Source: Candidatus Babeliales bacterium (GTDB lineage Bacteria; Babelota; Babeliae; Babelales; JANWKD01). From it: a stretch of DNA of 64,000 bases. Below the pieces are notes generated by a model that was given only the letters and a program-made list of their open reading frames with translations, made no database searches and was not told where the DNA came from. Numbering within the stretch: position 1 is the first letter of the stretch; each line of letters begins with the position of its first letter. The position numbers were made by a program, and so were the translations under genes. Location of the stretch: assembly GCA_963722075.1 (NCBI GenBank), contig CAVRJM010000001.1, positions 288,001 through 352,000 of the forward strand, written 5' to 3'. Of the stretch, positions 1,431-23,845 are shown in pieces.

Positions 1431-3392
1431 ATGAAATTTATTAAAAAAAGCATAGTGCTACTTATTTTTTCTATTCTGAGTGGCTATAGTTCTATTTATC
1501 CAATGGAAGAAGAGGAAGAAAAAACAAGCGTAGAAATTGCTTATCAATTAGAGCAGGCATTTGTACAGGATCAGAACCAATTTGAAGCTTTAATAGCTTC
1601 TTTATCTCCTGATAATTTTATTGAACATTTAGCTGCTATTGCCGAAATCATACCATTACTTGAAAATTCGGATCTAATTACCCATATATGCTCCACTATT
1701 GTTACTGCAATAACTCAGCAAGAACAAAACAGTGAATTATATAATCAAGCGGTAAAAAATATGGTGCCGGTGGTAGATTTTCTTATTAGAAAAAAAGAGC
1801 TGCCGGGATTATCACAAATTATCGTTTTATATAATATTGATGAGCAATGGGCTGAAGTGTGTAATCGAATTAAAATGTGTATTAATGAATTATTGGCAGA
1901 AAATGCTTCACGTGGCTATGCACTCAAAAGAAAATCAGATACTTCTTTTTATAAAAAACCTGAGACTAAGAAGCAGAAAGCCGAAGCGGATGCGCCACCG
2001 GCTGTAATTCCATCGTTAGTAGCGTTATGTGCCTCTCACGTGGTAAACAATATACGATCAAATAGATATGAAGATAATACTTTTGTTAACAGTTTTGATT
2101 TTGCACAGGAAGCGAAATTATCTGAGATAGAAGATTCATGTCTCGCGCTTCTTTATAAAAAATCGCAAAAGAAAAATAAAAAGGGATTCGGAAAGGTTAT
2201 AAAATGGCTAAATGAGCTTAACTTGTCAGGAACTCAACGAAAAGCATTCAAAAATTATATTGTTAATAATTCAAGATCTATTCAAAGCTTACTTGTAAAG
2301 GCCCAATTACAAACAACATGCAATGAATTAAAATTGCCTTTTGATGTGACCACCATATTTGGTATGGTTCCTTCTTGCTCTGGTAACCTTATAGCGGCAC
2401 AGATTCCCGTAAAAGGAGGCCTGACTTTTTTTAATTGGAAAACAAATACCTCTGTTTTAGCTAAAAAAGAAACCCCTCACATTTTTAAAATGAAATTTAC
2501 TTCTGATGGAAAAAAATTGATTTCTTTTACTTCGTTAACGGGAGAAGCTACTATTTGTGAATGGGATTGCCAAACGGGTGAATGTATTAAAGAAAGAACC
2601 ATAAGCCTACTAGATGGTAATGGTAGATATTTTAATCTGATCGTATTGAATGCTGATAAGAAGCAAGTAATAGTAGGTTTTCCTAATGGTAACATTAAAT
2701 TATACGATATTGAAAATGATACATATGAATCTTTACCGATAACTATAAATGGGTCCATATTACTCCCAAAATTCTCCTCTAATTTATTAGAATTTTCTTC
2801 TAATGGAAAAAAATTAGTTATAAGTACTTATCTTGGCACAAAAATATATGATGTTGAAACATGGGATGAGATCGCACGATTCATCATGCCAATTAATGAA
2901 TGCATACTGAGTGAACACTTCATTGTATTTAAGACTTCTAACAATGCAAATAAAGTGTATAACTTTGAAAGAAAAGAATGTAATGATTTATTTGCAGCAG
3001 TGGATCGTTATTCTAGTAGATTGCTTGCTATTTCTCCCGATGAAACAATAATTGCAACTAATAATCGGCATTCGATATGCTTGTGGGATTGTCAAACAGG
3101 TCAGCTTTTAAAAACAATACAAGGACCAAATGAGAGTATTTATGAAGGTGCTTTTTGCGATGACGGGCAATCATTTATGTGTATATCAGGAACAAATAGC
3201 GTTTATCGTTATAATTTTATTATAAATAAAAAGCTAATGGCTGACTTAGATTTAGAAGCAGTATTATGGATTGAATATATGATACCAGCTGATTTATACG
3301 TTCGTCTTACGGAAATTTATTACAATAATACAAATTTATATGCACAATTGCCGGATGAGCTTAAAAGGCAGTTGAATGTATTGATACGGTAA
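1431..3392 (+). CDS. Secreted WD40-repeat protein with bipartite NLS and BC-box-like motif (putative effector)
   Basis: Signal peptide; repeated WD40 units (ICEWDCQTG, IKLYDIE, ICLWDCQTG); KRK-...-KKQK; PSLVALCASHV. Confidence 0.8.
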   Translation: MKFIKKSIVLLIFSILSGYSSIYPMEEEEEKTSVEIAYQLEQAFVQDQNQFEALIASLSPDNFIEHLAAIAEIIPLLENSDLITHICSTIVTAITQQEQNSELYNQAVKNMVPVVDFLIRKKELPGLSQIIVLYNIDEQWAEVCNRIKMCINELLAENASRGYALKRKSDTSFYKKPETKKQKAEADAPPAVIPSLVALCASHVVNNIRSNRYEDNTFVNSFDFAQEAKLSEIEDSCLALLYKKSQKKNKKGFGKVIKWLNELNLSGTQRKAFKNYIVNNSRSIQSLLVKAQLQTTCNELKLPFDVTTIFGMVPSCSGNLIAAQIPVKGGLTFFNWKTNTSVLAKKETPHIFKMKFTSDGKKLISFTSLTGEATICEWDCQTGECIKERTISLLDGNGRYFNLIVLNADKKQVIVGFPNGNIKLYDIENDTYESLPITINGSILLPKFSSNLLEFSSNGKKLVISTYLGTKIYDVETWDEIARFIMPINECILSEHFIVFKTSNNANKVYNFERKECNDLFAAVDRYSSRLLAISPDETIIATNNRHSICLWDCQTGQLLKTIQGPNESIYEGAFCDDGQSFMCISGTNSVYRYNFIINKKLMADLDLEAVLWIEYMIPADLYVRLTEIYYNNTNLYAQLPDELKRQLNVLIR

Positions 3393-3844
3393 AATTATAA
3401 TAGTTAAATACTTTGAATCTTTACAAATGTTATGGCATTACCTGATACCTGTGGATTACAAACTAAATGGAGATTTTATGAAATTTATTAAAAAAAGCAT
3501 AGTGCTACTTATTTTTTCTATTCTGAGTGGCTATAGTTCTATTTATTCAATGGAAGAAGAGGAAGCAAAAACGAGCGTAGAAATTGCTCAGCAACTTGAA
3601 CAAGCATTTATTCAACAAGATCAAGCGCAATTTGAAGCGATATTGGCTTCAATTACAGCTGTGGATAGTAGCTTTATTGAGCAGCTTGATCGCATTATAG
3701 AAATTATACAATCAGTTGAAAATGGTGATTTAATTACAAATTTGTGTTCAACAATTATTACCGCAATAACGCAACAAGAACAAAATAATGAAATATATCA
3801 GGATGTCTTAAAACGCATGGTGTCCGTTGTTGATTTTCTTATCA

Positions 3845-4991
3845 CAGGACTTACGCAAGAGCATAAGAGTTCTCTTCAAAAGCATAAAATAAACTAGATG
3901 GTGTAGGGGGTTTTGCGACCCGAAAGGATCTGACAGCTTGTTCAGTATTGTCGAAATTATCTTTTACCCGCCTTATGTCGGCTAAAGCATAAGCCCATAA
4001 CACGAAAAGTAAATGCGCACGCTGCATGTTAAAAGAACGCATTTGGCATTCGCTGAATCCAAGAAGTTGTTTGGCAGTTCTATTGAAGCATTCAATTTGC
4101 CAACGAATCTTATATGTAGAAATTAGCTTCTCTTTGCCGAGCTGATGGCTACTGATAAGATACATAATTTTTTCCTTATCAATTTTTAACACATAGAAAT
4201 AACAGGAAAGACCAAAAATAGTGCCGTATCCACAAGCAAATCTGTTATTTTTTTTCAAACGTAAAATTTTTTGCAATTGTCCTGTTTTATTGTTAATAGT
4301 AACAACGCGATTTCTGGGAATTTTCATCAGAAATTTTATTGACCTGTTAAAAAGCTTTGGCAGAAGGTATTCAGTCGCATAATGGGCATCTGCAATTAAC
4401 CAATTAAACCGAATTGATCCTAGAACACGCTCTATAATAATGTAAGCAATTTCACTTTTTGTCTTGTAATTGGTTTCTCCAAATACTTTGCTTATCATAA
4501 TCTCCGCATCAATCGGTATTCTTACTCTGGTATCAGTGATCATGCCAATTACAGACCGTAATCCCAAAGCTGATCTTTTCTCACTACTATCATAAACAAT
4601 TTCTAATCCTTCAATATCGTTAGCATATTGCTTATTTACGGGAGTATCATCGATTATCAAATATCTTTCGCAATTGCTAAGACTTTCTAGAGCAACATTT
4701 TGTAATGAGCTTGTTATTTCTGCTGCATTCTGGGCTGCTTTTTCAACTTCCCTATTGAGCACATCATGCATTATTCCCAGTGTTTCAGAAATATTTGTGC
4801 AAACTTTTCGTGCCGTTGTTTTTAATAAACCCATTACATATTTTGGTGTGCTTGATTCTTCATTTGTATTTGTTATTCTCATTTCGGGTGTCCTTCTTTT
4901 TTGCTTTTGTTGTTTAATTCACAAAATTGAAGCACCCTTTTTTATTTATTTCAAGTCCCAATCAGAACTTTCGACCAATGCGTAAGTCCTG
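3845..4991 (-). mobile_element. Insertion sequence, IS701-like (IS4 superfamily), about 1.15 kb
   Basis: 13-bp terminal inverted repeats CAGGACTTACGCA (3845-3857 and 4979-4991), flanked by direct repeat TTATCA (3839-3844 and 4992-4997). Confidence 0.92.
3851..4882 (-). CDS. DDE transposase, IS701-like
   Basis: IIDDT, WLIADAHY and Y-x2-RW-x-IE-x6-KQ-x-LG motifs; stop codon lies inside the left IR. Confidence 0.9.
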   Translation of the reverse strand: MRITNTNEESSTPKYVMGLLKTTARKVCTNISETLGIMHDVLNREVEKAAQNAAEITSSLQNVALESLSNCERYLIIDDTPVNKQYANDIEGLEIVYDSSEKRSALGLRSVIGMITDTRVRIPIDAEIMISKVFGETNYKTKSEIAYIIIERVLGSIRFNWLIADAHYATEYLLPKLFNRSIKFLMKIPRNRVVTINNKTGQLQKILRLKKNNRFACGYGTIFGLSCYFYVLKIDKEKIMYLISSHQLGKEKLISTYKIRWQIECFNRTAKQLLGFSECQMRSFNMQRAHLLFVLWAYALADIRRVKDNFDNTEQAVRSFRVAKPPTPSSLFYAFEENSYALA

Positions 4992-6616
4992 TTATCAATA
5001 AAAAGCATCTTCAGGCGTTATCTCAAATTATAATTCTGTATAATACTGATGAACGATGGGTCGAATTATGTGATCGTATCAAAATTCATATTAATGAATT
5101 AGTAGCAGAAAATGCTACGCGTGGGTATGCCCTAAAAAGAAAATCTGATACTTCTTTCTATAAAAAAGCAGAGCCCAAAAAACAAAAAGTGGATGGTGAA
5201 GAAATACCATCGTTAATACAATTGTGTACGTCATGTATTACAAAAAATGTACAATCAGGTTCTTATGATTCGGAGAGTGTTGTTAGGATTTTTGATTTTG
5301 CCCTGGAACCGAGATTACCAACGATAGAAAATTCATGTTTAGGTGTATTATATCAAGAAGCACAAGAACAAAATAAAAAAAGTTTTTTAGCAACAGCTCA
5401 GTGGTTAGAAAATCTTAATTTATCATCAACACAAATGGAAGCATTAAGAAATCATATTGTAAATAATTCAAAAGCACTTCGTGCATTATTGCTAAAACTA
5501 GAAGCTGCTACAAAATTAATTACCCAATTTGAATTATTGGGCCCTAGCTATGAATCTGCTTTATCTTCTGATGGAAATGTTCTTGCATTACAAGAGCGGG
5601 GAAATAATATTATTAAATTATTTAACTGCAAAACAGGTAAATTACTTCAGGAAGTGCAAGGGCTTTCAGGTCCTGTTTTTGTAATGGCTCTTTCATGTGA
5701 TGGAAAAAAATTAATTACTAACTCACTGGTAGCTGGTTCTGCTACGTTTCGTTTATGGGATTGCGATACTGCTACTTGCATTAAAGAATATACTTTTACG
5801 AATAATGATTTACTTTCTGCATTGGCAGTAAATGCTAATAAAAAGATTATGGCGTTAGGTTTTGAAAATGGAACGATACAGCTTTATAACATGGAAACTA
5901 ATGGTATTAAAAATTTAATAAGCAAGGGGACAATTAATTTGCTACAATTTTCCGATGATGGTAAAAGGTTAATATCCAGCGCAACTAATGAAACACGATT
6001 GTGGGATCTTGAAACTGATAAAAGCATTATGCTTTATACAAAAAGAATTGATGGTTGCTTATTAAGTGAAAATTTTGTTGCATATAATAGAGGAAATTCA
6101 GCTAAGCTATTTAATCTTCAAACGAATCAATATTACAATTTACAAAGTCGTGATATTTTAAATTATTTTAAATGTATCAAATTACTTGCATTTTCTCCTG
6201 GTGAAACAATACTTGCAACAACTGGTAATAATTCCGGGGCTATTTGTTTATGGGACTCTCAAACTGGTCAACATATCAAAACAATTCAATGTCCTACTAA
6301 TAGATCTATTAGTTCACTCGTTTTTAATAGCGACGGAGAATCATTCATTTGTCTTCCAAAATGTTTCCTTCTACAAGTTGGTGGAGCTTTCGTTGACTTT
6401 AAAGATGTCATATATATTTATAATTTTATTGATAAACAAATATTAGCTGATTTGGATATAGAAACACTATTATGGCTTGGGTATCTTTTAAGCGCTGATC
6501 CAATAACGGTTCAAATGGAAATTTTCCTTTATAATCGAGATTTGTATGAAAAATTACCTGACGAGATTAAAAGATATTTAGATAGTATTAAGTAATATAA
6601 AATTTGAGTCAGAGAA

Positions 6617-7441
6617 TTATATACTTTGAGTCATAGTAATTGCTGGTAAAGCGGCGTCTATTACTTTATTAAAAAGTGCATTTTCAAATTTAATAGTATT
6701 TAAATAATGTACGCATTCAGTAAATTGACCTTCTTTTGCCTTTTCTATGCCAGAATTGAGTAATTGATCCCATTCGCTTTTTTTTAGGCATACGTTCGTA
6801 GTAAATATAATAATTATTGGATCAATGGTATGATCTTTTATGCAATCCTGCATTAATGTGTATAGAAGCATGATACTCTGATTATTAAAAAGAAATTCAT
6901 CTTGAGCTAAATAGCGAGCTATTTTTAAGCTTCTATTGCAAGCAGCTATATAAAATGCCATCGCTTTAAATTCATTAGAGGATAATGATTGAGAGAGATT
7001 AGTTGGCGGAAAATATTCTTTAGTAAAATTAAGGTTGCCGGAAATAATTGCAGTTTCAATTGAGTATTTACTGCCGTTTCGTATCACATGCTGCTTTCTT
7101 GCTTCTTGCAATGCGTGCTCGCGTTGCTCTTTTTTTTCTTCATTAGGTAATAATAATTTAAGACATTTTGGTGGGCCACCATGCTTAGTGACCCATTCCA
7201 ATACATTATTTTGAGTAGCTTTTAATTGTTTATTTTCAGCTTCTAAAGAATTGATACGATCCTTTAGTACTTTGATAACGCCTAATAAGTTATTAATGGC
7301 TGGCACAGCAGCAGTGGAGTCGTCTTTATTAATAAAGAACCAATCACGCTCACTATCTGATTCATCTTCATGTTCCATGCCTGCAGAATAAGACATATGA
7401 AATACAATAAAAAAAAGTACTATTTTTTTTACGCTATTCAT
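6617..7441 (-). CDS. Secreted hypothetical protein with coiled-coil segment
   Basis: Signal peptide ending SAG|MEHED; heptad stretch LKDRINSLEAENKQLK. Confidence 0.7.
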   Translation of the reverse strand: MNSVKKIVLFFIVFHMSYSAGMEHEDESDSERDWFFINKDDSTAAVPAINNLLGVIKVLKDRINSLEAENKQLKATQNNVLEWVTKHGGPPKCLKLLLPNEEKKEQREHALQEARKQHVIRNGSKYSIETAIISGNLNFTKEYFPPTNLSQSLSSNEFKAMAFYIAACNRSLKIARYLAQDEFLFNNQSIMLLYTLMQDCIKDHTIDPIIIIFTTNVCLKKSEWDQLLNSGIEKAKEGQFTECVHYLNTIKFENALFNKVIDAALPAITMTQSI

Positions 7442-7518
7442 ATTACTACCTATTATTTTACCAACTTTTTTTATCGTACCATATTAAAATTAGTAATAAC
7501 AATAGGCAGAATTTTGGT

Positions 7519-8031
7519 CTATTTGGTATCGATTAATTCAACATCAAAAACAAGCGTTGAATTTGCTGGAATAAGATTTCCTCCCACCGCGCGATTGCCA
7601 TAAGCAAGGTCTGCAGGAATAATTAAAAGACGTTTCTCACCAACTTTCATATCCATTACACCTTCATCCCATCCTTTGATTACTTGCCCTACCCCGATAG
7701 TAAATTTGAATGGTTGATTGCGATCGCGGCTGCTATCAAACTTTTTATCTTTTATAGCATTGCCATTCGCATCAGCAAGCCAGCCGGTGTAATGTACCGT
7801 AACGGTGTTCCCTTTAACAGGTTTTTTTGCATTAGTATCGGTTGTTTCTTTTATTACTTCATATTGGAGGCCGCTTGGTAAAGTAATACGTTCTGATTGG
7901 TTCATTGATTTAGTTTCCTGTAATTCTGTTTTTGGTTCTGATGAGGTTTTTTCTTGAGGTTTTTGGTTAGTACATCCTGATTGTATTGGTAGTAATAGCG
8001 CAATGATTACATATGAAATAGTTTTGTTCAT
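7519..8031 (-). CDS. FKBP-type peptidyl-prolyl isomerase (FkpA/Mip-like), probable lipoprotein
   Basis: VTVHYTGWL, FDSS, GQVIKGWDEG, IPANSTLVFDVEL; lipobox-like QSG|C. Confidence 0.93.
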   Translation of the reverse strand: MNKTISYVIIALLLPIQSGCTNQKPQEKTSSEPKTELQETKSMNQSERITLPSGLQYEVIKETTDTNAKKPVKGNTVTVHYTGWLADANGNAIKDKKFDSSRDRNQPFKFTIGVGQVIKGWDEGVMDMKVGEKRLLIIPADLAYGNRAVGGNLIPANSTLVFDVELIDTK

Positions 8032-8112
8032 GATACTTCCTTTGGTAATGTTTTGATTTTCATATACAGAGTAATCAAAACTATAAAGAAATCTAGGCCC
8101 TCATTGCGGGAA

Positions 8113-9174
8113 TCAAATTCTATATAATAAGCGTTCTTGATTTTGCAATTCCTGTACCTTCAAATAAATTTCTTGCTGCTTTAATATATTTTGGCAATTC
8201 ATTGCATGCATTTGTTGTTCCTGTAATCGAGTAATTTCGCGTTGATTTTCCAATTGTTGTTCGAGCAATTTATCACGTTTTCGTTCAAGTAATTCATTAT
8301 GGTAACGAGGGTGATCAATAATTGTTGTATGAATAAATGATAAATCTTCTATCAACGCCGCTGCATTACTAGTAATAAGCGGGTATGTGTATTGAGATGT
8401 TTTTTTTAATAATTTTTGTAGTGAATTTATATGGGAACCAAGAGACTCAATATACGCTATGAACGTATAGGTATTTTTGGCATCACGCATAATAATTTGT
8501 ACGCATGCTTTAGTAAATTTTTTCTTTAGGGCCTTACCGGTGAAGATACTTTTGGAATGGTAGTTAGTGAAAACAAGAGCTAGTTCTTGTTGATATTTTT
8601 TTGAACAGTCTTGAACTTCTTGAGTAAGTAGAAAATATGTTTCATGTTTTGAGAGTGTTTTGTAAATTACCGTAAGTTCGTCGATGAGCAAATCTGCTTC
8701 TTTTTCTATCCCTTTTAATTTTTCAAGAAGGAACCGAGTATGATGATCATAGGTAAAATTAAGGATGCTTTCATATACATATTTTTTTTGTTTCATTAAA
8801 TCAATCAAATCATATTTTAAATCTAATAAAAAACTAGTAAAAGATTTATTATGATCTAAAGAAAGACTCCTTAAAAAATGTTCATAGCTTTGATGAATAA
8901 CTTTGTGATGCCAATGGATAATAAGGTTATTATAATGCTTATGAATGCGTCGATATGTTTGATGCGCTTCTTCATAAATTTGTTCATCTGATTTAGTAAA
9001 AAGCCATTGACCAAATTTATAGATGCCATATCCACATGAAGCTGCAATGGTGGTGAAAACACCTACTTTTGCAATTGTTTCAAGTGGTTTAGAACAATCT
9101 GACTTTGATTTAGGTTTAGTTGCATTAAAAGAGATACAAATAGTAGCTAATAATAATGATTTTCTTATCAACAT
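8113..9174 (-). CDS. Hypothetical exported/membrane-anchored helical protein (paralog of 9195..10283)
   Basis: Signal peptide plus second hydrophobic segment CGYGIYKFGQWLFTKSDEQ, shared with the neighbour. Confidence 0.7.
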   Translation of the reverse strand: MLIRKSLLLATICISFNATKPKSKSDCSKPLETIAKVGVFTTIAASCGYGIYKFGQWLFTKSDEQIYEEAHQTYRRIHKHYNNLIIHWHHKVIHQSYEHFLRSLSLDHNKSFTSFLLDLKYDLIDLMKQKKYVYESILNFTYDHHTRFLLEKLKGIEKEADLLIDELTVIYKTLSKHETYFLLTQEVQDCSKKYQQELALVFTNYHSKSIFTGKALKKKFTKACVQIIMRDAKNTYTFIAYIESLGSHINSLQKLLKKTSQYTYPLITSNAAALIEDLSFIHTTIIDHPRYHNELLERKRDKLLEQQLENQREITRLQEQQMHAMNCQNILKQQEIYLKVQELQNQERLLYRI

Positions 9175-9194
9175 ATGAGGTCCTTTCTGGGGGA

Positions 9195-10283
9195 TTAATA
9201 TTGATATTGATCCATTCTGCGTAACATTAATTCGTGATCTATTTCATTTTTGTTGGTTTCACGTGATGATATTTCTGACTTAATAGCGGGTTTATACGTG
9301 GTTGTCGAGTAACTTGTTATGGTTGTGGGTTGGCTTACGTATACATAATTATTGGTTTTCGAGGTTTTGTAATCATTATAGGAATACGTATTTGACGGTT
9401 TGGTATTGCTATGAGAGCAATAAGAATTATTTTTCTTTTCGTTTGTGTAGTTTTTATTCATTTTTACAATAGCGCGAATTTTTTTAAGATTTTTTATTAA
9501 ATCCGAAACTTTTTGTTCTAAAATGGGATAACCATAAAGGCCTTCCAGAGTTTTTTGTAAATTTTTTATATCTATTCCTAGATGACTTACAAAAATACCA
9601 AAAGGGCGACGATACGAATTTCCATCTTGTATTAAAGGGGTAAACAGTTTATTTAATTTTTTTGTTCTTGCGGAGGAGTCATCTAAATAACAATTTTGAT
9701 AAATATGAATGAATTTTTCGTATTCTTTTAAAGACTTTTTATATAATTGTTTCGCAATAAAATAGGCTTTATTATCTGAAAGCATTTTATAAATAGGATT
9801 AAGCGACTTGATTAAACAGTCGATACGTTTTTGTAACTTGTTCATGGAATTTAAAAGAGGAGTAGTGGCTCTCCATTTTCGACATTCTAATTGATTATTA
9901 TAGTCTTTTAATGTCTCAATTGATGACTGCATCTGATACAAATAACACTCAAATGATAGTTTTTTATCGATGGGAAGTCGTGTTAATAAATGTTCGATGG
10001 TTGGGCAATATATTTCCTGACAATAGGTGGTTATTAATTGGCGATACTTATGTTCTGTTTTACCGTAATAATCACATGCTTCATCATAGAGCTCTTCATC
10101 TGTTTTACTAAAAATCCATTCTCCTACTTTATAAATGCTATATCCGCATGTTGTTACAATAGCGCCAAAGACGGCGGCATGTGCTAAATCAGTTGTGGTG
10201 GATGTATCATACGATTTACATGAGTGTGTTGTGTTGAGACCAAAAAAAATGATAAAAGATAAAAGAAAAGTATTGAGTTTCAT
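9195..10283 (-). CDS. Hypothetical exported/membrane-anchored helical protein (paralog of 8113..9174)
   Basis: CGYSIYKVGEWIFSKTDEE; S/T/Y-rich C-terminal tail. Confidence 0.7.
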   Translation of the reverse strand: MKLNTFLLSFIIFFGLNTTHSCKSYDTSTTTDLAHAAVFGAIVTTCGYSIYKVGEWIFSKTDEELYDEACDYYGKTEHKYRQLITTYCQEIYCPTIEHLLTRLPIDKKLSFECYLYQMQSSIETLKDYNNQLECRKWRATTPLLNSMNKLQKRIDCLIKSLNPIYKMLSDNKAYFIAKQLYKKSLKEYEKFIHIYQNCYLDDSSARTKKLNKLFTPLIQDGNSYRRPFGIFVSHLGIDIKNLQKTLEGLYGYPILEQKVSDLIKNLKKIRAIVKMNKNYTNEKKNNSYCSHSNTKPSNTYSYNDYKTSKTNNYVYVSQPTTITSYSTTTYKPAIKSEISSRETNKNEIDHELMLRRMDQYQY

Positions 10284-10448
10284 GAAACTCCTTCGTGGGT
10301 TAAAATTTCAAATTGAATTTTAATACAATTTTATATAAGTGTAAGTTAATATTAATTTTATAAGAAAATTGGAAAAAAACAAATTTGGCTCATATACTGT
10401 GAGCGATATAATTTTTATAATTAAAAAAACAGTGTAAAGGAACGATGT

Positions 10449-10787
10449 ATGAAAAAATTAATAGTAACAATTGTTCTTATGCCGGCATTATTGAGTGCGA
10501 TGCAAAAACTGCAAACGCCGCCTGCGAGCCCTAAAAAGAATGTACCTTTAGTAACGATTGGCGAATATCATAATCTTGTTCGAGCTTTTAAAAATGCGCA
10601 GACAATAGATGATATTAATGATGGGATCAATAGACTGAATGCATTAAAAATGGACGCTACAAATCAGGGACGGCAAAAGATCGCATATGATTGTGGAAGA
10701 ATGATTGGAAGATTGCAAAGTAGATCAAACAATGATTTGTTTGTTGATCAATTAAAAATGATATCTCTTCAGGAAAAGAAAAAATAG
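10449..10787 (+). CDS. Small secreted hypothetical protein
   Basis: AAAGGAA RBS; signal peptide ending LSA|MQK. Confidence 0.7.
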   Translation: MKKLIVTIVLMPALLSAMQKLQTPPASPKKNVPLVTIGEYHNLVRAFKNAQTIDDINDGINRLNALKMDATNQGRQKIAYDCGRMIGRLQSRSNNDLFVDQLKMISLQEKKK

Positions 10788-10808
10788 AAGTAATCATAGA
10801 AAAGAATT

Positions 10809-10837: not shown

Positions 10838-10838
10838 A

Positions 10839-14960: not shown

Positions 14961-14969
14961 ATATTCCTT

Positions 14970-15950
14970 TTAAAATGATAATCGTAATTGCCCTGGTGGC
15001 TGAGATCGATAATAGTTGCCTACGTGTTTTATACCAAATTCTGCCGTAAAAATATCTTTTTTAAAATGTGCAGGTAATGGCGGGTATGGGCTTGCTGCTC
15101 GAATTCCTTGTATGATTGCTTCATCAATCTGATTATTGCCACAGCTTTGTATGATTGAAGCTTGTTGTACAACGCCATCTTTATTAATGGTTACAGAAAC
15201 CCCGGTAATAACCAGCGGCGGCACTTGTGAGTTCATTAAGGTTTGATTACGTCGCCATTCATTTTGCATATACCAAATAATTTTATGCATATAGCTTAAA
15301 TAGCGCATCTCTTCAAAATCTGGACGAATATTTTCATTGCCTTTGCGCTCCATGAGATCATTGCCCCCCTCATTAAGCGAATTTAAAAATCCGCGGGCTA
15401 AATCATTAAACTGTAGCTCTTTTTGTATTGGCCCTTTTGTTTTTTTAGGAGAATCGCTTTGTTGGGTTGGCGGTTGTTCTTGTTTTGCTTGTTTAGAGAA
15501 TGAAGCTTCTACTTGTTTGATGGTAATAGGGTCTGTTATTGGTTTTTGAATGGATTGTTCAGCTTGTACGCTGGTATTCATAATCGGTGTTTCTTGTGGG
15601 GGTGGAGCTTGTTGCATTGGTTCTTCTGATGGTGCATCTTGCGGATCTGGTGGAATGGCTGCTTCAAAATAATCTTCTTCTTTAAAATCCTCTGGGATGC
15701 CCAATTGAGAAGCTCCCGGCTTTAAGGCGGCAACTTCGTGGGGATCAGGTGGCGGCGGGGGAGGGGGTTTTGGCATTTCTTCAAAAACCACGGGGGCACT
15801 GGCCGAATCAGTGAGAGTATGCCAAGGGCGATAATCAGTAGTGATTAAAAAAAGGATAACCAGGAAAAGCAGATTAACGCATAGAGCTATAAGTAAAAAT
15901 AGCCATAAATAGCGGTTTTTTTGGTCAATTTCTGACTTATAACTGCTCAT
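14970..15950 (-). CDS. TonB/TolA-family energy transducer
   Basis: Single N-terminal TM helix, poly-Pro linker, C-terminal INKDG...SCGN..IDEA...IRAASPYPPLP. Confidence 0.8.
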   Translation of the reverse strand: MSSYKSEIDQKNRYLWLFLLIALCVNLLFLVILFLITTDYRPWHTLTDSASAPVVFEEMPKPPPPPPPDPHEVAALKPGASQLGIPEDFKEEDYFEAAIPPDPQDAPSEEPMQQAPPPQETPIMNTSVQAEQSIQKPITDPITIKQVEASFSKQAKQEQPPTQQSDSPKKTKGPIQKELQFNDLARGFLNSLNEGGNDLMERKGNENIRPDFEEMRYLSYMHKIIWYMQNEWRRNQTLMNSQVPPLVITGVSVTINKDGVVQQASIIQSCGNNQIDEAIIQGIRAASPYPPLPAHFKKDIFTAEFGIKHVGNYYRSQPPGQLRLSF

Positions 15951-16046
15951 ATATAATCCTTCTTTTTAACGCTCTTTATAGGATACCTAATAATATAAAT
16001 AAGAGTAAATAAGCTGAAATAATCTCTTTTGAACCTGTAGATTTAA

Positions 16047-16074
16047 TTGACAAATACGAAATTTTATTTATACT
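16047..16074 (+). promoter_or_regulatory. Sigma70-type promoter for the J-domain array
   Basis: TTGACA (16047-16052), 16 bp spacer, TATACT (16069-16074). Confidence 0.6.
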
Positions 16075-16119
16075 AATAAGTAACTATAAATGATCTCAGA
16101 TATTTTAGGGAATAATTAT

Positions 16120-18105
16120 ATGAAAATTAAACTATTATTAGGTATCGCCTTGATGACATTGTCATTGAAGGGGATGCAAGAATCGGATAGAAGTCTTTAT
16201 TTCTATTTTGGATCAAATCCATCAGTTAAAACTGACGATATAAAAACTATCTATGAAAGTATGGCTGCTGTTTATAATCCAGCTAATTATGAGCAAAGTC
16301 CCATAAAGGCGTCAATGCATAAAGAACAAGCAGCAGAATACTTCAGTAAAATGAGCGAAGCATATGAAATCTTATCAGATGTAACAGCTCGCGCCATGTA
16401 TGATGTTTTTGGATTGGAGCGTGCGAAAGCATTTTTAATCAGAAGAGAAGGTTTATTAGCTGGTATTAAAGAAGGAACTGAAGCGTTAAAAGGTCTTATT
16501 ACTCATTGTCATATCCCACAATACTATGAACAATTAAGGACATATCATGAAAAATTATGCACGTTTTGGATTACTGAAATGGCGGGTAGCGATATTGCAA
16601 CTGAGCTCAAACGGGCTGTAGTTAATGCAACATATATGGTTATTCAATTTTTTCATACCAATTATGCACAAAATAAAAATGGTGCTGAAATAATTAAATA
16701 TATCGATCTAGCATTAAATTATGCGAATGATCTTCCTTTAAATGATGCACAGGATCTTACTATTGCTGAAGAGCTTATTCAATTAAGAAATCAGTATCTC
16801 GCTATAGAGCGTGGATCTGGAAGCAATGTAAGTGCTGCGTCTTCTTCATTACCATCAGTAATGGTTGTAAAAAGACCTTTAATAGATAAAAAAAATAAAA
16901 ACAATGCAGTAAAGCGTCTCAAAGGGGCTGATAAATCGCCTCAAAGAAATCCACCAGCTTCTAAAGAAAATGAAGAATTTGAAAGACAAGTTGAGCAGGT
17001 AGGGGAATATCTAAAGGGAAAATCTTTTTTTACTACTACTGGCACTGATGGTCTTACGGTAGAAGAATTTTATACCGAAATTAGTAAGAGATTAGTATTT
17101 ATAAATGATTTACCAAAGAGTATTTCATTAGATAATAAAAAAAAATGTGAGGATTTATTTTTAGACCTTATTAAACGAGCGTTAGATCTGTTGCGATATC
17201 AGTATCGTGAATTTAGATCAGATGCCCATAATCAAGAGGATGCTTATAAATTAGGCATAACATTATGTGAATTTGGTGCAAGGATGGTAAATCATGCAGA
17301 CTTACAATGTTATACTGATTTTTTTAAGGTACGAGAAAAAAACAAAAACGAGCGGGAAGCGGCGATAGAGAAATTTGATAAAGACCTAAAAGCTAATCAA
17401 AAATCTAGCCGAGAATTAACTAGATATATGGGATTAGAGTATTTAAATGATTTATATATTGATGCTATTTCTCCACAGTACCAGAATAAAGCATTAAAAC
17501 ATTTTTATAAGGTCATTAATCGACTATTAAAAGAAAAAAAACCGAAATGGGTAGCCAAAAGGATTTTCCAAAGAGCTCTCATGTTCAAATGGACCGATTG
17601 TTCAAAACATATAGCTGAAAGCGGTATTTTTAGAAAATTTAATAAAATTATTGCTCTTGCTGATAAATTATTTGTTTCAGATTCTGATTTGTTGCGAGAT
17701 TTTTGCAAAGGAATGAAAGAAGAATTAGATGCAGATATACCAGAATCTATTCGGAATGTTAAACAACGTATTATTAATTCTTCCAAAAAAATAAAAAAAT
17801 GGATGACAGATCCTCGGGGTCGCGTCTGCATAAAAACTGCGCAAGGCATACACTCCATTAGTGCTTCTTTAAGTATTAATAGAGATGAAAATAATGAAGA
17901 ACAAGTTTCAATTTTTATAGAATTAATTATTACCTGCATTAATAAGTTAAATAATCTATACCAACAAAATGATGCAATAGAATTGATTGATCATCTATTA
18001 ACAAATTCCATCTTTGCATCTGGCATAGTTATTAGACAATCGATTATAGACACATTTATTGATTTGAAAAAACAAATTATGGAGGAAAAGAAAAATGAAA
18101 ATTAA
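16120..18105 (+). CDS. Secreted pseudo-J-domain protein with bipartite NLS (array member 1)
   Basis: Start re-called at MKIKLL to match paralogs; YNPANY in place of HPD, then EAYEILSD and RAMYDVFG; KRP-...-KRLK. Confidence 0.8.
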   Translation: MKIKLLLGIALMTLSLKGMQESDRSLYFYFGSNPSVKTDDIKTIYESMAAVYNPANYEQSPIKASMHKEQAAEYFSKMSEAYEILSDVTARAMYDVFGLERAKAFLIRREGLLAGIKEGTEALKGLITHCHIPQYYEQLRTYHEKLCTFWITEMAGSDIATELKRAVVNATYMVIQFFHTNYAQNKNGAEIIKYIDLALNYANDLPLNDAQDLTIAEELIQLRNQYLAIERGSGSNVSAASSSLPSVMVVKRPLIDKKNKNNAVKRLKGADKSPQRNPPASKENEEFERQVEQVGEYLKGKSFFTTTGTDGLTVEEFYTEISKRLVFINDLPKSISLDNKKKCEDLFLDLIKRALDLLRYQYREFRSDAHNQEDAYKLGITLCEFGARMVNHADLQCYTDFFKVREKNKNEREAAIEKFDKDLKANQKSSRELTRYMGLEYLNDLYIDAISPQYQNKALKHFYKVINRLLKEKKPKWVAKRIFQRALMFKWTDCSKHIAESGIFRKFNKIIALADKLFVSDSDLLRDFCKGMKEELDADIPESIRNVKQRIINSSKKIKKWMTDPRGRVCIKTAQGIHSISASLSINRDENNEEQVSIFIELIITCINKLNNLYQQNDAIELIDHLLTNSIFASGIVIRQSIIDTFIDLKKQIMEEKKNEN

Positions 18106-20110
18106 ACTATTATTATCAATTCCGTTTATAGTTCTTTCTTTAAAGGGGATGCAACCATCGGATATAAGTCTTTATTTCTACTTTGGATCAAATCCAACAA
18201 TAAGCACTGACGATATAAAAACTATCTATGAAACTATGGCTCCTGTTTATAATCCGGCTAATTATGAGCAAAGTCCGGTAAAAGCTTTAATGCATAAAGA
18301 ACAAGCAGCAGAATACTTCAGTAAAATGAGCGAAGCATACGAAATTTTAAGAGATCAAACCCTGCGTCCAATGTACGATATTTTTGGGTTAAGTCGGGTG
18401 AGGGATTTTTTAAATAGAAAAAAAGATTTATTAGATGGTATAAAAAAAGGAACTGAAGCGTTAAATGGGTTTATTACTTATTGTCATATGCCACAATATC
18501 GTGAACAAATAAAACCGTATCATGAAAAATTATGCGTATATTGGATCCAACAATTAAATGATTGGTTAAATACTGATGTTGTACCCGAGCTACAGCGGGC
18601 CGTTGTCACTACAACATATAACGTTATTCAATTTCTTCACAGCAATAATCAGGTGCAAAATAGTGCTGAAATAATTAAATATATTGATCTAGCATTAAAT
18701 TATGTGAGAGAACTTCTTCCTTTAAATGATGCGCAAGATTCTATTATAGCCCAAGAGCTTACCCAATTAAGAAATCAGTATCAATCTACCCAAAGTTCGG
18801 GATCTGGTTCTGGGTGCCAAGAAAATATAGAAGCGGGAACAATTGGAACAAAAAGACCTTTTGTGTCAATAGATGACAAACATAGAGTAAATAATGCAGT
18901 AAAGCGACTAAGGGAGTCTTCTAACGAATTACGCAACGAAAGGGAAGCAGCTTATAGAAGAGCAAAGGAAATTGAAAAAGAAGTTGAGCAGATCCGAAAA
19001 TATGTGGAAGAAAAATCTTATTTTACTACAGATGGAACCAATGGGCTTACCGTAGAAGAATTTTACACTGAAATTACTAAGCGGTTAACCTTTATGAGAG
19101 ACTTTCCAGAAGGTATGAGTCAGTATATTAGATCAAAATGCGATAAGTTATTTTCAGGGCTTATTATTCAAGTCGTTGATTTGTTGAGAGATCAGTTTCA
19201 TTTATTTAAATCTGATGCACAAAATCAAGATAATGCTTATACATTGGGTGCGGCATTATACCATTTTGGTAAAGATCAGGTAACATATGATTCTTATGAA
19301 TTTCACGATTTAAGACGTGCTCTTTATTCATTTAATTATAACTACTCGCAACAAGCACGAAGATCGCTGGGAGAGCAAATAGAGAAACTTGATAAGGCTT
19401 TAAAAGATAAAGAAAAATCTGCCCTAGAATTAGCTAAGATACTTATAAATAGGTGTAAGTATGTTCATACCCTTGCTCCTCACTATCAAAATAAAGCATT
19501 AAAACAATTTTATAAGATTGCTAAACGAATGCTCGATGAAAATGAATCAGAGTATTCTGTATTGGTAGCAAAACAACTGATGTATATGGCAGCAGCTAAA
19601 TTGAAATGGGTTGATTGTTCACAAAATATAACGTTGAGTGGTATTTATAGGAAATTTAAAAAAATTAATTCTCTTTTTGAAAAATCATTTATTCCTGACA
19701 TGCGAGAAATGCGTGAATTTTGTAATGCAATGAAAGAGAAATTAAATACAGATGATGCAGAATCTATAACTACGGTTAAACAAACTATTATTAGCTCTTC
19801 GGTTAAATTTAAAAAACTAACAAATATTTTTAGTAGTAATCTAAAAATTCAACGAGGTTTACATACCCTTCGCGGTTATATGGGGCCATCTGAAAGGGCT
19901 CAATCGCAAACACCTTTTACTACTTTTATCGCATTGCTTTCTAATTGTGTTCAAAAGTTAATTAAGTCTGATCAACAAAATGACGCTTTGGAATTGATTG
20001 AGAACATATTAAAATACCCAGTATTACAATACTCAATTAGCCAACCGACTAAAGAACAATTCCTTGATTTAAAAAAACAAATTATGGGGGAAAAGAAAAA
20101 TGAAAATTAA
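18095..20110 (+). CDS. Secreted pseudo-J-domain protein with bipartite NLS (array member 2)
   Basis: Alignable to member 1 over its full length; YNPANY; KRP-...-KRLR. Confidence 0.8.
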   Translation: MKIKLLLSIPFIVLSLKGMQPSDISLYFYFGSNPTISTDDIKTIYETMAPVYNPANYEQSPVKALMHKEQAAEYFSKMSEAYEILRDQTLRPMYDIFGLSRVRDFLNRKKDLLDGIKKGTEALNGFITYCHMPQYREQIKPYHEKLCVYWIQQLNDWLNTDVVPELQRAVVTTTYNVIQFLHSNNQVQNSAEIIKYIDLALNYVRELLPLNDAQDSIIAQELTQLRNQYQSTQSSGSGSGCQENIEAGTIGTKRPFVSIDDKHRVNNAVKRLRESSNELRNEREAAYRRAKEIEKEVEQIRKYVEEKSYFTTDGTNGLTVEEFYTEITKRLTFMRDFPEGMSQYIRSKCDKLFSGLIIQVVDLLRDQFHLFKSDAQNQDNAYTLGAALYHFGKDQVTYDSYEFHDLRRALYSFNYNYSQQARRSLGEQIEKLDKALKDKEKSALELAKILINRCKYVHTLAPHYQNKALKQFYKIAKRMLDENESEYSVLVAKQLMYMAAAKLKWVDCSQNITLSGIYRKFKKINSLFEKSFIPDMREMREFCNAMKEKLNTDDAESITTVKQTIISSSVKFKKLTNIFSSNLKIQRGLHTLRGYMGPSERAQSQTPFTTFIALLSNCVQKLIKSDQQNDALELIENILKYPVLQYSISQPTKEQFLDLKKQIMGEKKNEN

Positions 20111-22160
20111 ACTATTATTAGTAATTCCACTTATAATTCTTTCTTTAAAGGGGATGCAAGAATCTGATATAAGTCTATATTCCTATTTAAATGTTCAAAA
20201 TAATGCAACTAGAGAAGAAATAAAAAAAGCATATAAAGATTGTTCTCTTATTTATCATCCAGATAAATATGAACAAAGCTCTATACGCAATCGTATGTCA
20301 AAGCAAGAAGCTGAAGAGCATTTCAAAAAAATTAAAGAAGTATATGAAATTTTAAGTAATAATAAAACACGAAAGATGTATGATGATTTTGGTTTAAAAT
20401 ACGTCCGAAGTTATATTGCTCAGGAAGAAAAGAACCGGCGTGCTGCTGAAGAACCCATGGCCCAGCAACAATCTACCCAAACAGCGTTCACCGCAAAAAG
20501 GTCATCACAAACTCCTAAACAAGACGAAGCCAAGTCAAAATCGGAAGAAGATATAAAGAATGTTCTTGAAGATCTTGAGGCGGGAACTAAGATCATTAAT
20601 AACTTAATTACTGAATTTTATACCTATAGTTTCAGGTTATCAGAATTAGAAGGATATTATAACGAAAAAATTCAAGAATGTATTTCATTATTAAAAATGC
20701 CCAAATACTCAATTATTAGAGACGATATTAAGAAAACAATAATAGATGTATCACAATTATTCATTGGTGTATTACTATTAAAAATGAAAGAAGATCAAAA
20801 TTTGGCTCGTAATGTACTACTCCATGCAGAAGAAATTATGCAGTCTTTATACTTAGGAGTAAATGATTACAGGTTTTTTGCAGATGCTGTAACGCGCGCC
20901 CGAGAAAAATTGGCACCCAGATCGCAACCATATACTCAACAACATACTGCTTTTCAAACAAAACGACCGTCACCACAGGGTCCTAAACAAGCTGATCCTA
21001 AGCGCGTAAAAACAACTGAACCTACTGTTGATTCGAAGTTTAAACAAAGAATCGAATTTATAATTGAAGAACATAAACGTTTTAGCGATTATTTAGCGCA
21101 AGCAAGTTTTTTGAAAGAAAACGTTTTAACCTATCAAGAATTTTCCAATATGGTACAGAAAAAAATTGATTTTATTAAACCATATATAACAGGAATTCCA
21201 GAAAATTTAATTTTAGGATATAAGTTGCGTAATAGCATGTTGAGACATATTTTCCAGGCCATTTTATTATTAAAAGAAAGATACACTGAATTTAAAGAAG
21301 TTGATTGGATCATGGCCTGTGGATGGGGTAAAAATTTATGTAGTTCAGCGTTTTTTATTTATTCAATTTCAGATGATGAAGACAAAGCGGTTGTTAAGGA
21401 GCTTTCTTTGTTAAATTCTTATTTTGATAAAGAGATATTGCATTCAAAAATTAGGAATATAGATTATCACCTTCGTTCAAAAAGCTCGAATATAATTGAA
21501 GATGCGCGATTTGTACTTCACGATTATGAAAACAAAATAATTTCAGCAGATCCTATAATGCAAGATAAAGCCGCAAAGCATTTTTATAAATTTGCCAAGA
21601 AGTTATTAAAGCAATCAGAACGAGCTCTAGCAGTTGAGTTGTTAAATAGGGCACTATACTTGAGATGGTCAAATATAGATGGTATTTACCAAACAATTGA
21701 GAAAATAAAAAATCTACTTACAAAGCTAAATTATTATTCGATTATTGTAACGAATTTTTGTCAAAGTAATAGAAAAAAATTGGAAGAAAATTCGCCAGAT
21801 GCAGCGCTTGCTGTTCAACAAAATATTATTAATAATAATGATCGATTGAAAAATTCGCTTTCATGCTGTGTTATTCATCGATTTCAGAATTTCATATATA
21901 GTACTTTTACAACCACAAACCCTGATTTACTGAACCTTTATTATGATTGTATTCAGTTGTTAATTAATTCTCATTTTTTAAATGAAGCTTTAGAGCTCAT
22001 TAATATCGTAATTTGTCAATACGATCTGGATAAAGAAACACAGGATCGCTTTAAAGAACAATTTGATTTAATTAATCAAATGCAAGAATTAGATAAACAA
22101 CTTGAAAGTCAGCCACCAATGGATTTCAATGATATTAAAGATTTTTTAAGTAAAGAATAA
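20100..22160 (+). CDS. Secreted J-domain protein (intact HPD) with bipartite NLS (array member 3)
   Basis: LYSYLNV...EIKKAYK...YHPDKY...YEILS...RKMYDDFG; KRPSPQGPKQADPKRVK. Confidence 0.85.
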   Translation: MKIKLLLVIPLIILSLKGMQESDISLYSYLNVQNNATREEIKKAYKDCSLIYHPDKYEQSSIRNRMSKQEAEEHFKKIKEVYEILSNNKTRKMYDDFGLKYVRSYIAQEEKNRRAAEEPMAQQQSTQTAFTAKRSSQTPKQDEAKSKSEEDIKNVLEDLEAGTKIINNLITEFYTYSFRLSELEGYYNEKIQECISLLKMPKYSIIRDDIKKTIIDVSQLFIGVLLLKMKEDQNLARNVLLHAEEIMQSLYLGVNDYRFFADAVTRAREKLAPRSQPYTQQHTAFQTKRPSPQGPKQADPKRVKTTEPTVDSKFKQRIEFIIEEHKRFSDYLAQASFLKENVLTYQEFSNMVQKKIDFIKPYITGIPENLILGYKLRNSMLRHIFQAILLLKERYTEFKEVDWIMACGWGKNLCSSAFFIYSISDDEDKAVVKELSLLNSYFDKEILHSKIRNIDYHLRSKSSNIIEDARFVLHDYENKIISADPIMQDKAAKHFYKFAKKLLKQSERALAVELLNRALYLRWSNIDGIYQTIEKIKNLLTKLNYYSIIVTNFCQSNRKKLEENSPDAALAVQQNIINNNDRLKNSLSCCVIHRFQNFIYSTFTTTNPDLLNLYYDCIQLLINSHFLNEALELINIVICQYDLDKETQDRFKEQFDLINQMQELDKQLESQPPMDFNDIKDFLSKE

Positions 22161-22189
22161 AAAGATTTTCTGATAATGGAGAAACATAG

Positions 22190-23845
22190 ATGCGAAGGTT
22201 ATTTATTCTCGTATTACTGCACATTACCTGTTATGCCATGGAAGATCCTTTTCATAATTATACATTAGAAGAGCAATCCAAAAAAGAATTAATTATTACC
22301 ATGGAAATGTATGCTAATAATTTAAAGCATTATATTTCCCTTTATTATGATAATCAGCTCAGTTGTACACAACTTGAAGATTATTATAAGTCGCTACACG
22401 AATGGTTATATAAACAAGGTGAGTTATGCAGAGGTACGCAAATTGCGCCTATTTGTGCAGAGGAAATAATCAAAAATGGTTTTAGCATCATTAAGCTATT
22501 TGCATCACATAAAGAAGCGGAAATGCTTGAAAAAGCGGTTTACTATATTGATTCTCTAGTAAAATATATACGCCAAGGAGATTTGCGATTACATGAATTG
22601 GATCAATTAAAAAACAAGCTCAGTCAAAAATTAAAGGCATCAGTTCAAAAAGGATTGTTAAAAAGAAAAGCTACGCAAAGTCCTTGCTTATCTGTTAAAA
22701 AAAATAAAGTTGATGATGTAAATTTTTTGAAGGAAAAAAATGCTGCATTAAAGAATTACTTAAAAAGAACCTCTTATAATTTGAATGAATTTTGTAGTAC
22801 GGTTACCATATCATTAGATACTATTATCGATTTATTTGATGATCTTCCTGAGCAAAAAGAAAAAGAAGAAAAGGGTTTAAGAGCACAAATACTCGCTAGT
22901 ATTTGTAGAGCAATTTCTTTATTTGAATATCAATTAGAAAAATTTACTCATTATAATAGTAAAACTGCATTTCAATGCATTATTTATATATGTCAACGTG
23001 GATTACCATTTAACTCGATATGGACGCAACTGCAAGAAACGCAAGAAATTTATAAATATAAATTACAATGTATTGAAATAAAAGAACAACAAAGAAAAAA
23101 AGTAGAAGATCTAATAGATGCAATGGGCCAACAATTTCCAATCAGCAAAACGAGCCCGGATCTTAAGAATATTGCAGATGTTTTAATGGCGGAGTGCGGA
23201 AATAATGATGATCTTTCCTTGGATTATCAACAAAAAGCTCTAAAGCATTTTTATAAAGTAACAAAAAAGTTATTCCAACAAAATGATATTGAACGATTTA
23301 CAACGCTGATTAATTGTGTTCTTTCTCAGGCATGGATGGAGGATCTTCATATCATTGATCGTTTTACAAAGATTTGTGATTTAAAAAATAAAAATGACGA
23401 AGCATATCAATGGGTACTAAAATTCAATGCAATTATAAAAGAACATTTTAAGAATGCGCAGGATATTGAATCTTTAAAAAATGCTTTAAACACATTACTT
23501 AATTATCAATCAGATGCTTTTCAGGTAATCAGTCGAATTTCTACCATGATTATCGTTCCTGAAGTGCTTAATGGAAGTGTTACCATAGGCATTAAAGAGG
23601 ATGATCAGCAAAAAAATGATGCAAAATCAATGATTCTTAATCTCTATTATGATGGGGTACAAAAATTAATGGAAGCAGGCTTGTTTGAAGAGGCCGGAAT
23701 TCTTATTAATAGTATAGCAGCTCAGGGTGATGAACTAAAAATAAATGAATTAAGAAACCAACTTGGTGATTGTATTATGGCATCATATGAAGCTACGCTT
23801 TATTTAAATTTACCTGATGATGATGCCGATACTATTATTTTGTAA
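22190..23845 (+). CDS. Secreted paralog lacking the J-domain, with bipartite NLS (array member 4)
   Basis: Shares QKALKHFYK and LNLYYD with members 1-3; KRKATQSPCLSVKKNK. Confidence 0.75.
   Translation: MRRLFILVLLHITCYAMEDPFHNYTLEEQSKKELIITMEMYANNLKHYISLYYDNQLSCTQLEDYYKSLHEWLYKQGELCRGTQIAPICAEEIIKNGFSIIKLFASHKEAEMLEKAVYYIDSLVKYIRQGDLRLHELDQLKNKLSQKLKASVQKGLLKRKATQSPCLSVKKNKVDDVNFLKEKNAALKNYLKRTSYNLNEFCSTVTISLDTIIDLFDDLPEQKEKEEKGLRAQILASICRAISLFEYQLEKFTHYNSKTAFQCIIYICQRGLPFNSIWTQLQETQEIYKYKLQCIEIKEQQRKKVEDLIDAMGQQFPISKTSPDLKNIADVLMAECGNNDDLSLDYQQKALKHFYKVTKKLFQQNDIERFTTLINCVLSQAWMEDLHIIDRFTKICDLKNKNDEAYQWVLKFNAIIKEHFKNAQDIESLKNALNTLLNYQSDAFQVISRISTMIIVPEVLNGSVTIGIKEDDQQKNDAKSMILNLYYDGVQKLMEAGLFEEAGILINSIAAQGDELKINELRNQLGDCIMASYEATLYLNLPDDDADTIIL

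Follow-up and report, generated by a model that had tools for sequence, protein, structure and literature searches.

Bipartite basic motifs as candidate nuclear localisation signals in predicted exported J-domain and WD40 proteins of a Babeliales bacterium

In this study, we analysed two unrelated gene families, a tandem array of four genes (J1 to J4) most of which encode a J domain and a pair of WD40 genes (WD1 and WD2), that combine signal peptides with a bipartite basic motif in a Candidatus Babeliales genome. The window, as we call the whole stretch of DNA that was analysed, comprises 64,000 nucleotides of contig 1 (CAVRJM010000001.1, positions 288,001 to 352,000; assembly GCA_963722075.1), and an earlier note on it had proposed these six genes as a set of secreted proteins that are directed to the host nucleus by classical nuclear localisation signals (NLSs). 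The pattern of conservation makes it very probable that the motif of the J family is a real, selected feature. As to what the motif does, a classical bipartite NLS read by the importin-alpha of a host appears to be the best explanation overall, and we hold it with moderate confidence; the case is stronger for the J family, and for WD1 it is weaker and no more than tentative. Judged by their sequences, J1 to J4 are best explained as Sec-exported, host-directed proteins of a Babeliales parasite of protists, and WD1 is probably also Sec-exported and host-directed, with less support. The NLS reading is preferred because of the two-cluster form of the motif, its spacing, its KRP start, its position in the presumably flexible linker of J-domain proteins that are predicted to be exported, and its zinc-finger and WD40 companions.

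The motif in the J array, its homologues and the WD40 pair

J1 to J4 form a tandem array on the + strand and are unrelated to the WD40 family. J1 (16120..18105) encodes a signal peptide (MKIKLLL...LKG|MQES), a J domain, a helical region, a motif-bearing linker and a C-terminal helical domain; its longest open reading frame (ORF) begins at 16090, and the start at 16120 is favoured by the paralogues and by a promoter-like site at 16047-16074. J2 (18095..20110), which shares its first 11 nt with the end of J1, has the same architecture and is 49% identical to J1. In J3 (20100..22160) an acidic/Q-rich insert stands between the J domain, which again follows a signal peptide, and the helical region, the linker with its motif and the C-terminal domain. 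J4 (22190..23845) consists of a signal peptide (…CYA|MEDP), a helical region, a linker with the motif and a C-terminal domain homologous to that of J1-J3. The helical region, the linker and the C-terminal domain, which is about 380 residues long and matches no known family, are common to all four proteins. The Pfam DnaJ profile (cut-off 27.8 bits) gives 34.2 bits for J1, 33.4 for J2 and 66.4 for J3, and the Pfam scan returned no DnaJ match for J4. The HPD tripeptide is kept only in J3 (YHPDK), the J domains of J1 (16186-16420) and J2 (18161-18395) reading YNPAN at this place. By these sequences, the array presents itself as a graded decay of co-chaperone function.

The six peptide strings listed in the earlier note all translate exactly at the coordinates reported here. 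Within the array, the motif of J1 (KRPLIDKKNKNNAVKRLK, KR-x12-KRLK) is found at 16870..16923, that of J2 (KRPFVSIDDKHRVNNAVKRLR) at 18851..18913, that of J3 (KRPSPQGPKQADPKRVK, KR-x11-KRVK) at 20961..21011 and that of J4 (KRKATQSPCLSVKKNK, KR-x10-KKNK) at 22661..22708, each on the + strand. The consensus that had been assigned to them, KR-x10-12-K(K/R)x(K/R), is matched by five of the six motifs, and J2 departs from it with a spacer of 15 residues. We therefore refer below to a strict motif, which is this consensus, and to an extended motif with a spacer of 10-15 residues. Spacers of 13-15 residues, such as that of J2, seem acceptable for an NLS because crystal structures validate linkers of 11-21 residues for bipartite signals from large T antigens of polyomaviruses, according to the available text of PMC10807245. 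Placement of the motifs in inter-domain linkers, as claimed earlier, finds indirect support in composition and in the indel-rich region of the alignment in which they lie: the motif stretches are poor in order-promoting residues, ranking between the 3rd and the 23rd percentile within their own protein, with WD1 at the 3rd.

The earlier claim that basic clusters are kept in the J array while the linker around them diverges was confirmed. Between J1 and J2, identity amounts to 12/21 positions in the motif and 5/43 in the rest of the linker (337/681 overall), and between J1 and J3 to 7/19 and 2/42, respectively (175/741 overall). Such a conserved island in a diverging linker is the strongest evidence in this analysis and indicates that the motif is under selection. 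In the alignment, the downstream cluster of J4 has its counterpart in the middle KKNK of J1, and not in KRLK.

The J family comes close to being an orphan. Four outside proteins (P0006-P0009) emerged from a profile search across 1.84 billion representatives, and three further loci in other genomes emerged from one across 261 genomes of the order, among them the present genome; word-indexed searches returned the query itself only, a metagenome scan returned only the contig of P0009, and J4 alone had no match in 40 relatives. The homologues are ~17-28% identical to J3. Nine of the ten members examined nevertheless carry the extended motif, namely J1-J4, the metagenomic proteins P0006 (KRPLSSTTKKRAIKKPR), P0007 (KRYQIYTPKSQPDQKRHK, at the C-terminus) and P0008 (KREARSEHYIISKNVARKRQK), and homologues from the same genus (KRPVESPISSSNLTHPSKKQR) and the same family (KRLIEEAMKKHAPPVKKRK). 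The sole member without it, P0009, is a protein of 287 aa that consists of the C-terminal domain only. A locus in genome G051 (E 2.6e-4), of different architecture and with no motif seen by eye, was excluded from the set as a doubtful relative. After local shuffling, the chance that a given J-family member would carry the motif ranges from 0.0025 to 0.073, and in five members the motif opens with KRP. Structural and family databases added little: an NCBIfam scan of J3 gave DnaJ-type matches only, all under cut-off; the ESM Atlas gave no usable match, or only weak TPR-like leads below 0.9; and a PDB sequence search with the J family gave marginal J-domain matches only, from the second J domain of P0006. 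This 859-aa protein holds two J-domain units. P0006 and P0008 are each recorded on a contig with a greatest length of 7797 bp and may therefore be neighbours, as in the J array. A look-up of RNA data for the array listed none.

The WD40 pair is likewise encoded on the + strand. WD1 (1431..3392) is intact in ORF and translation (653 aa) and runs from a signal-peptide-like N-terminus (...SSIYP|MEEEE) through a helical region, the basic motif (KRKSDTSFYKKPETKKQK, 1926..1979, + strand, residues 166-183, KR-x12-KKQK) and an IPSLVALC box (~2007-2042) to a WD40 propeller, where residues ~330-600 match many propeller families of Pfam at E 1e-10 to 1e-5, every match falling under its family-specific cut-off. 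The six genes named in the earlier note amount to five intact genes and a disrupted one because an insertion sequence (IS) splits WD2. The N-terminal fragment of WD2 (3478..3846, + strand) comprises the signal peptide and helical region, is 73% identical to WD1 over the aligned part and is ended by the IS. This element of ~1.15 kb (3834..5002, - strand) has terminal inverted repeats (3834-3857 and 4979-5002) around a gene for a DDE transposase at 3851-4882 (Pfam DDE_Tnp_1, 60 bits), and TTATCA is repeated at its two junctions. Since the genome holds seven full, near-identical copies of the IS (99.7-100%), plus one partial copy, the disruption of WD2 appears to be recent. In the C-terminal part of WD2 (5003..6595, + strand) the frame is open from ~5003, and the nominal ORF begins at a GTG at 5189; the part holds the basic motif (KRKSDTSFYKKAEPKKQK, 5135..5188, + strand), which lies upstream of the nominal start, an IPSLIQLC box and a WD40 propeller (PF00400, 38.6 bits, cut-off 27; ANAPC4_WD40, 42.3 bits, cut-off 22.9).

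Elsewhere in the genome, WD1 and WD2 have a sole distant paralogue, WD3 (contig 1, 1303545-1305524). The IPSL(V/I)xLC box, which stands just 3' of the basic motif (window positions 2007-2042 and 5207-5242), is kept in all three WD40 paralogues, and an LPxEL box closes WD1, WD2 and WD3. We considered the IPSL box as an F-box or SOCS (BC) box and rejected this assignment; it fits the BC-box regular expression, and Pfam gave no F-box or SOCS match even at E values up to 10. A PDB sequence search with the linker and box region of WD1 found no match, and the N-terminal region of WD1 had none in 40 relatives.

Motif frequency in the genome

The genome of the window measures 1.47 Mb in four contigs with a G+C content of ~34%. 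Its arginyl-tRNA synthetase (ArgS) is 52-62% identical to those of Babeliales/Dependentiae metagenome-assembled genomes and ~40% identical to those of other phyla, which identifies the genome, on this marker, as one of Babeliales/Dependentiae. The motif was counted in 1298 ORF products obtained with a crude caller (ATG starts only, a minimum of 90 aa, greedy selection by length). Of these products, 761 are flagged as signal-peptide-like by a simple hydrophobicity rule, the remaining 537 being referred to as unflagged; Sec signal peptides, with a basic n-region, a hydrophobic h-region and small residues at -1 and -3, were recognised by this rule and by inspection (A, S or G at position -1).

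The strict motif has 14 matches in 13 proteins, against an expectation of 4.9 when whole proteins are shuffled and 6.1 when residues are shuffled locally within 30-residue windows. In the signal-peptide-like class there are 13 strict and 21 extended matches vs. 3.23 and 6.22 expected, and none of 100 local shuffles reached the observed numbers. The unflagged proteins have 1 strict and 4 extended matches vs. 2.84 and 5.11 expected, and their content of K and R is slightly higher than that of the flagged ones. Collapsing paralogues by BLAST clustering leaves the picture unchanged, with 11 strict and 16 extended families in the flagged class vs. 3.1 and 5.75 expected (0 of 200 shuffles), and 1 and 4 in the unflagged class vs. 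2.58 and 5.0. Twelve of the 13 proteins with a strict motif are signal-peptide-like, and the exception resembles a ribosomal protein. When WD1, J1, J3 and J4 are set aside, nine strict matches in eight flagged proteins still stand against ~3.2 expected. The distance from KR to K[KR]x[KR] also shows a preference in flagged proteins, where 13 pairs have a spacer of 10-12 residues, 10 have one of 13-15 and 2 one of 7-9, and spacers beyond 15 account for 1-6 pairs per three-residue bin; unflagged proteins show no peak, with a single pair at 10-12. The earlier note would have been contradicted by such motifs being equally frequent in cytoplasmic proteins. Since both the excess, which is about four-fold, and the spacer peak are confined to the signal-peptide-like class of this genome, that is not what we observed.

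The other flagged carriers of the motif include three tandem WD40 proteins, one protein with an internal J domain, and C2H2 zinc-finger proteins. The three tandem exported WD40 proteins (contig 1, 793668-800974) are ~670-680 aa long and carry a C-terminal bipartite motif, which comes after the LPxEL box and is followed by a long acidic tail.

Possible roles of the motif and relation to known systems

The motifs, their rarity and spacing, their restriction to the signal-peptide-like class of this genome and their conservation in the J family are observations on the sequences. The route set out here is inferred throughout, from cleavage of the signal peptide and export past the periplasm to the binding of importin, nuclear localisation and any activity in the nucleus. 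The signal peptide would bring the proteins through SecYEG, and a cut after A, S or G would leave a Met-Glu or Met-Gln N-terminus. Exit from the bacterial cell could then proceed by a secretin-type system or by vesicles; two secretins and two T2SSE-type ATPases were found among the secretion genes of the genome. In the host cytosol, the KR...K(K/R)x(K/R) element in its flexible linker would bind the minor and major sites of importin-alpha, and the protein would be imported. Once in the nucleus, J3, with its HPD intact, could bring host Hsp70 to the binding target of the C-terminal helical domain, and J1 and J2 (NPA) and J4 (no J domain) would bind this target without stimulating Hsp70. We know of no partner for a J domain in a periplasm.

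Other roles for the basic element are conceivable. It could bind acidic phospholipids or nucleic acid, or serve as a cell-penetrating aid across a host membrane: basic clusters are typical of membrane-active, lipid-binding segments, the proteins have one or more further membranes to cross, no injection system was found, and the excess of the motif among signal-peptide-like proteins would suit translocation as well as nuclear import. We nevertheless consider this quite unlikely, as the element consists of two short clusters at a preferred spacing of 10-15 residues and is neither amphipathic nor uniformly basic, its spacers abound in P, S, Q and N and in some cases are acidic, and the KRP with which it starts in five members is also how the nucleoplasmin signal begins. 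The motif could also be a proteolytic site at which cleavage after export frees the N-terminal J or helical module from the C-terminal domain, given that it lies in an inter-domain, low-complexity linker and that KR pairs are classic dibasic processing sites. The proline after KR in five J-family members speaks against it, since proline at this position disfavours Kex2/furin- and trypsin-like cleavage, and a single cut would need no second cluster at a fixed distance; processing is thus a very improbable role.

There is, finally, the view that the motifs arise incidentally from linkers rich in lysine and low in complexity, and from selection by eye, in envelope or periplasmic proteins that never meet importin. 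We regard this as unlikely, if not negligible. Composition-keeping shuffles of 30-residue stretches give 3.2 strict matches where 13 are observed, and the excess survives the collapse of families; nine of ten J-family members keep the motif at an identity of ~20%, with only 5-12% identity elsewhere in the linker; and it is hard to see what purpose J domains, WD40 repeats and C2H2 zinc fingers preceded by signal peptides would serve in a periplasm. Some of the evidence nevertheless agrees with it, namely the lack of a clear excess or spacer peak in relatives, the absence of the motif from WD3, the crudeness of the signal-peptide rule and the frequency with which NLS predictors flag ordinary bacterial proteins.

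These four points, together with several others, weigh against the NLS reading and deserve to be set out. The motifs were picked by eye, so that their significance at the level of the window is modest, with ~0.25 chance matches expected per window of this size. The rule that flags 761 of the 1298 products has evident cytoplasmic enzymes among its catch, and the gene calls behind it are ATG-only ORFs with a floor of 90 aa. NLS predictors run in silico flag 88 to 214 proteins per ordinary bacterial genome, as quoted in PMC13311002. One of the six motif genes, WD2, is a pseudogene. WD3 reads LLKKSDSLFFEYASTEQKIR at the homologous place, without the bipartite pattern, yet keeps the adjoining IPSLxxLC box; the motif of WD1 and WD2 is common only to these two close copies, and the WD40 motif would therefore be young, its function unsupported by conservation. 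In 2.0 Mb sampled from four related genomes, replication was weak. Per 400 kb, the flagged proteins of G003 had 0 strict and 4 extended matches (1.57 and 3.45 expected) and those of G001, a member of the same genus, 2 and 4 (1.73 and 3.0 expected); at 800 kb G001 had 4 and 8 vs. 2.3 and 4.62, numbers reached by 18 and 11 of 100 shuffles, respectively. G020 had 2 and 2 vs. 0.53 and 1.27 expected, and only G022 stands out among the four, with 3 and 6 vs. 0.87 and 1.27 in 400 kb, its unflagged proteins also being somewhat high (2 and 3 vs. 0.75 and 1.32). Pooling the spacers of the four relatives gave a histogram without a peak at 10-12. The excess is thus so far a property of this genome and not of the order. 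Lastly, no match to VirB4, VirD4 or FHIPEP, as markers of type III and type IV secretion, was found in the genome, which leaves the passage of exported proteins to the host cytosol unaccounted for.

Large T antigens of polyomaviruses carry a J domain and work in the host nucleus. The J family resembles them in joining, within a pathogen protein, an N-terminal J domain to a classical-type signal in a linker (for the signals, the available text of PMC10807245), and differs in having no sequence relation to them beyond the J domain, in that a helical domain of no known family makes up the remainder of the protein, and in the loss of HPD from two of its four copies. Relative to classical bipartite signals of the nucleoplasmin type, five of the six motifs match the consensus without deviation, several begin with KRP and their surroundings are low in order-promoting residues; the carriers, however, are bacterial proteins with Sec-type signal peptides. 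HopI1 of Pseudomonas syringae is described, in the part of PMC8982422 available, as a J-domain effector that hijacks host Hsp70 in a specific host compartment. The J family, a putative effector family by its sequence, shares the J domain with HopI1, but HopI1 is delivered by type III secretion and acts in chloroplasts, whereas the proteins described here have a Sec signal peptide and a nuclear-type motif, in a genome in which no type III marker was found. Bacterial nucleomodulins such as Orientia Ank F-box proteins, Listeria LntA and Mycobacterium Rv1988 act in the host nucleus, and are alike in being exported, some with classical basic signals and some via general export signals; theirs is a role shown by experiment, whereas ours is read from protein sequences, and none of those named in the accessible portions of the two sources comes from Dependentiae (PMC7819608; PMC13311002). 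In the same portions of the former, a review of nucleomodulins, J domains are mentioned only for a plant target gene family (PMC7819608).

Within the phylum, Chromulinavorax destructans, a cultured intracellular parasite of a flagellate, has signal peptides on 44% of its coding sequences and on 78% of its ankyrin proteins, and shares with the present genome a very large predicted secretome that is rich in orphans and repeat proteins; nuclear signals, J-domain arrays and a Met-Glu motif after the signal peptide are not mentioned in the available text of its description (PMC6561590). Our literature search found no paper that ties Dependentiae or Babeliales to nuclear signals or to the host nucleus. 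Host-type nuclear signals are already known from other effectors; the novelty here lies in the phylum, in the orphan J-domain family and in an apparent dependence on Sec export.

Predicted exported companions and the Met-Glu/Gln class

Six C2H2 zinc-finger genes are clustered at 216260-226289 of contig 1, ~62-72 kb before the window, and four of the six encode a signal peptide with a Met-Glu start, which places a DNA-binding domain of eukaryotic type on proteins predicted to be exported. An RKRK(R)/KRKR cluster is present in all six of the clustered zinc-finger proteins vs. 21 of the 1298 proteins of the proteome, and the C2H2 family was matched in only one of 14 well-known control genomes.

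Among the 761 flagged proteins there are 144 whose hydrophobic region leads into a small residue with Met-Glu or Met-Gln behind it, frequently with Pro at +4. Of the 144, 120 have A, S or G at position -1. A looser form, with Met-Glu/Gln anywhere within 16 residues after the hydrophobic region, occurs in 163 of the 761 vs. ~3% of random 16-residue windows. All six of the window proteins discussed above have such a start, as do the outside J-family members with known N-termini, and examples in the window may be seen at 1431-1510, 16120-16185, 18095-18160, 20100-20165 and 22190-22245. The extended basic motif is present in 11 of the 144 Met-Glu/Gln proteins vs. 8 of the other 617 (Fisher P 1.5e-4, paralogues kept). 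Among 66 soluble Met-Glu/Gln proteins from the first 800 kb of contig 1, 16 have a Pfam match at E 1e-5 or better; 15 of these are eukaryote-type (J domain 3, WD40 4, ankyrin 5, zinc finger 3) and one is a toxin domain. In a control set of 66 random flagged proteins without Met-Glu/Gln, 22 have matches, comprising 3 ankyrin and 1 Sel1 and otherwise periplasmic or plainly cytoplasmic enzymes. These control matches indicate that the Met-Glu/Gln subclass is distinct and that the signal-peptide rule over-calls. The start is frequent in the same family (42 of 210 in G003, 39 of 185 in G001) and rarer in two other families (15 of 218 and 12 of 189). Host-directed proteins may thereby be marked for sorting or for stability.

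Taken further, these observations might reflect a large host-directed effector system that operates without type III or type IV secretion and is marked by a Sec signal peptide and a Met-Glu/Gln start, a subset of which, comprising the J array, several WD40 proteins and the C2H2 cluster, enters the protist nucleus by means of NLSs. We put this forward as a possibility that is more doubtful than the reading of the motif itself. Within such a system, the Met-Glu/Gln start, which resembles that of native eukaryotic proteins, may protect the protein in the host cytosol. The system would constitute the first nucleomodulin arsenal in Dependentiae, including J-domain proteins that would work like polyomavirus T antigens.

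To our knowledge, Dependentiae occur widely as parasites of protists, and very little has been learned of how they handle their hosts. If the NLS reading is true, the J-domain family, several WD40 proteins and the C2H2 zinc-finger cluster would make up a short, testable list of host-nucleus proteins. It would also mean that effectors of the Sec route, without an injection machine, can be aimed at the nucleus by host-type signals, and would provide a handle on the step that carries such proteins out of the periplasm.

Several further genes with export-type N-termini were encountered. At 25431-26687 of the window, a signal-peptide-like N-terminus and an N-terminal region precede a NADAR domain (113.7 bits, cut-off 35.1), and the gene just before it (24525-25397) seems, by eye, to share that N-terminal region. 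A gene at 455340-456023 of contig 1 encodes a LigD 3'-phosphoesterase domain (151 bits); the N-terminus of its product is hydrophobic, and residues 38-55 form a strict bipartite motif. At 530638-534039 of contig 1, a Met-Glu-class protein of 1134 aa ends in an Ntox21 toxin domain (33 bits, cut-off 25).

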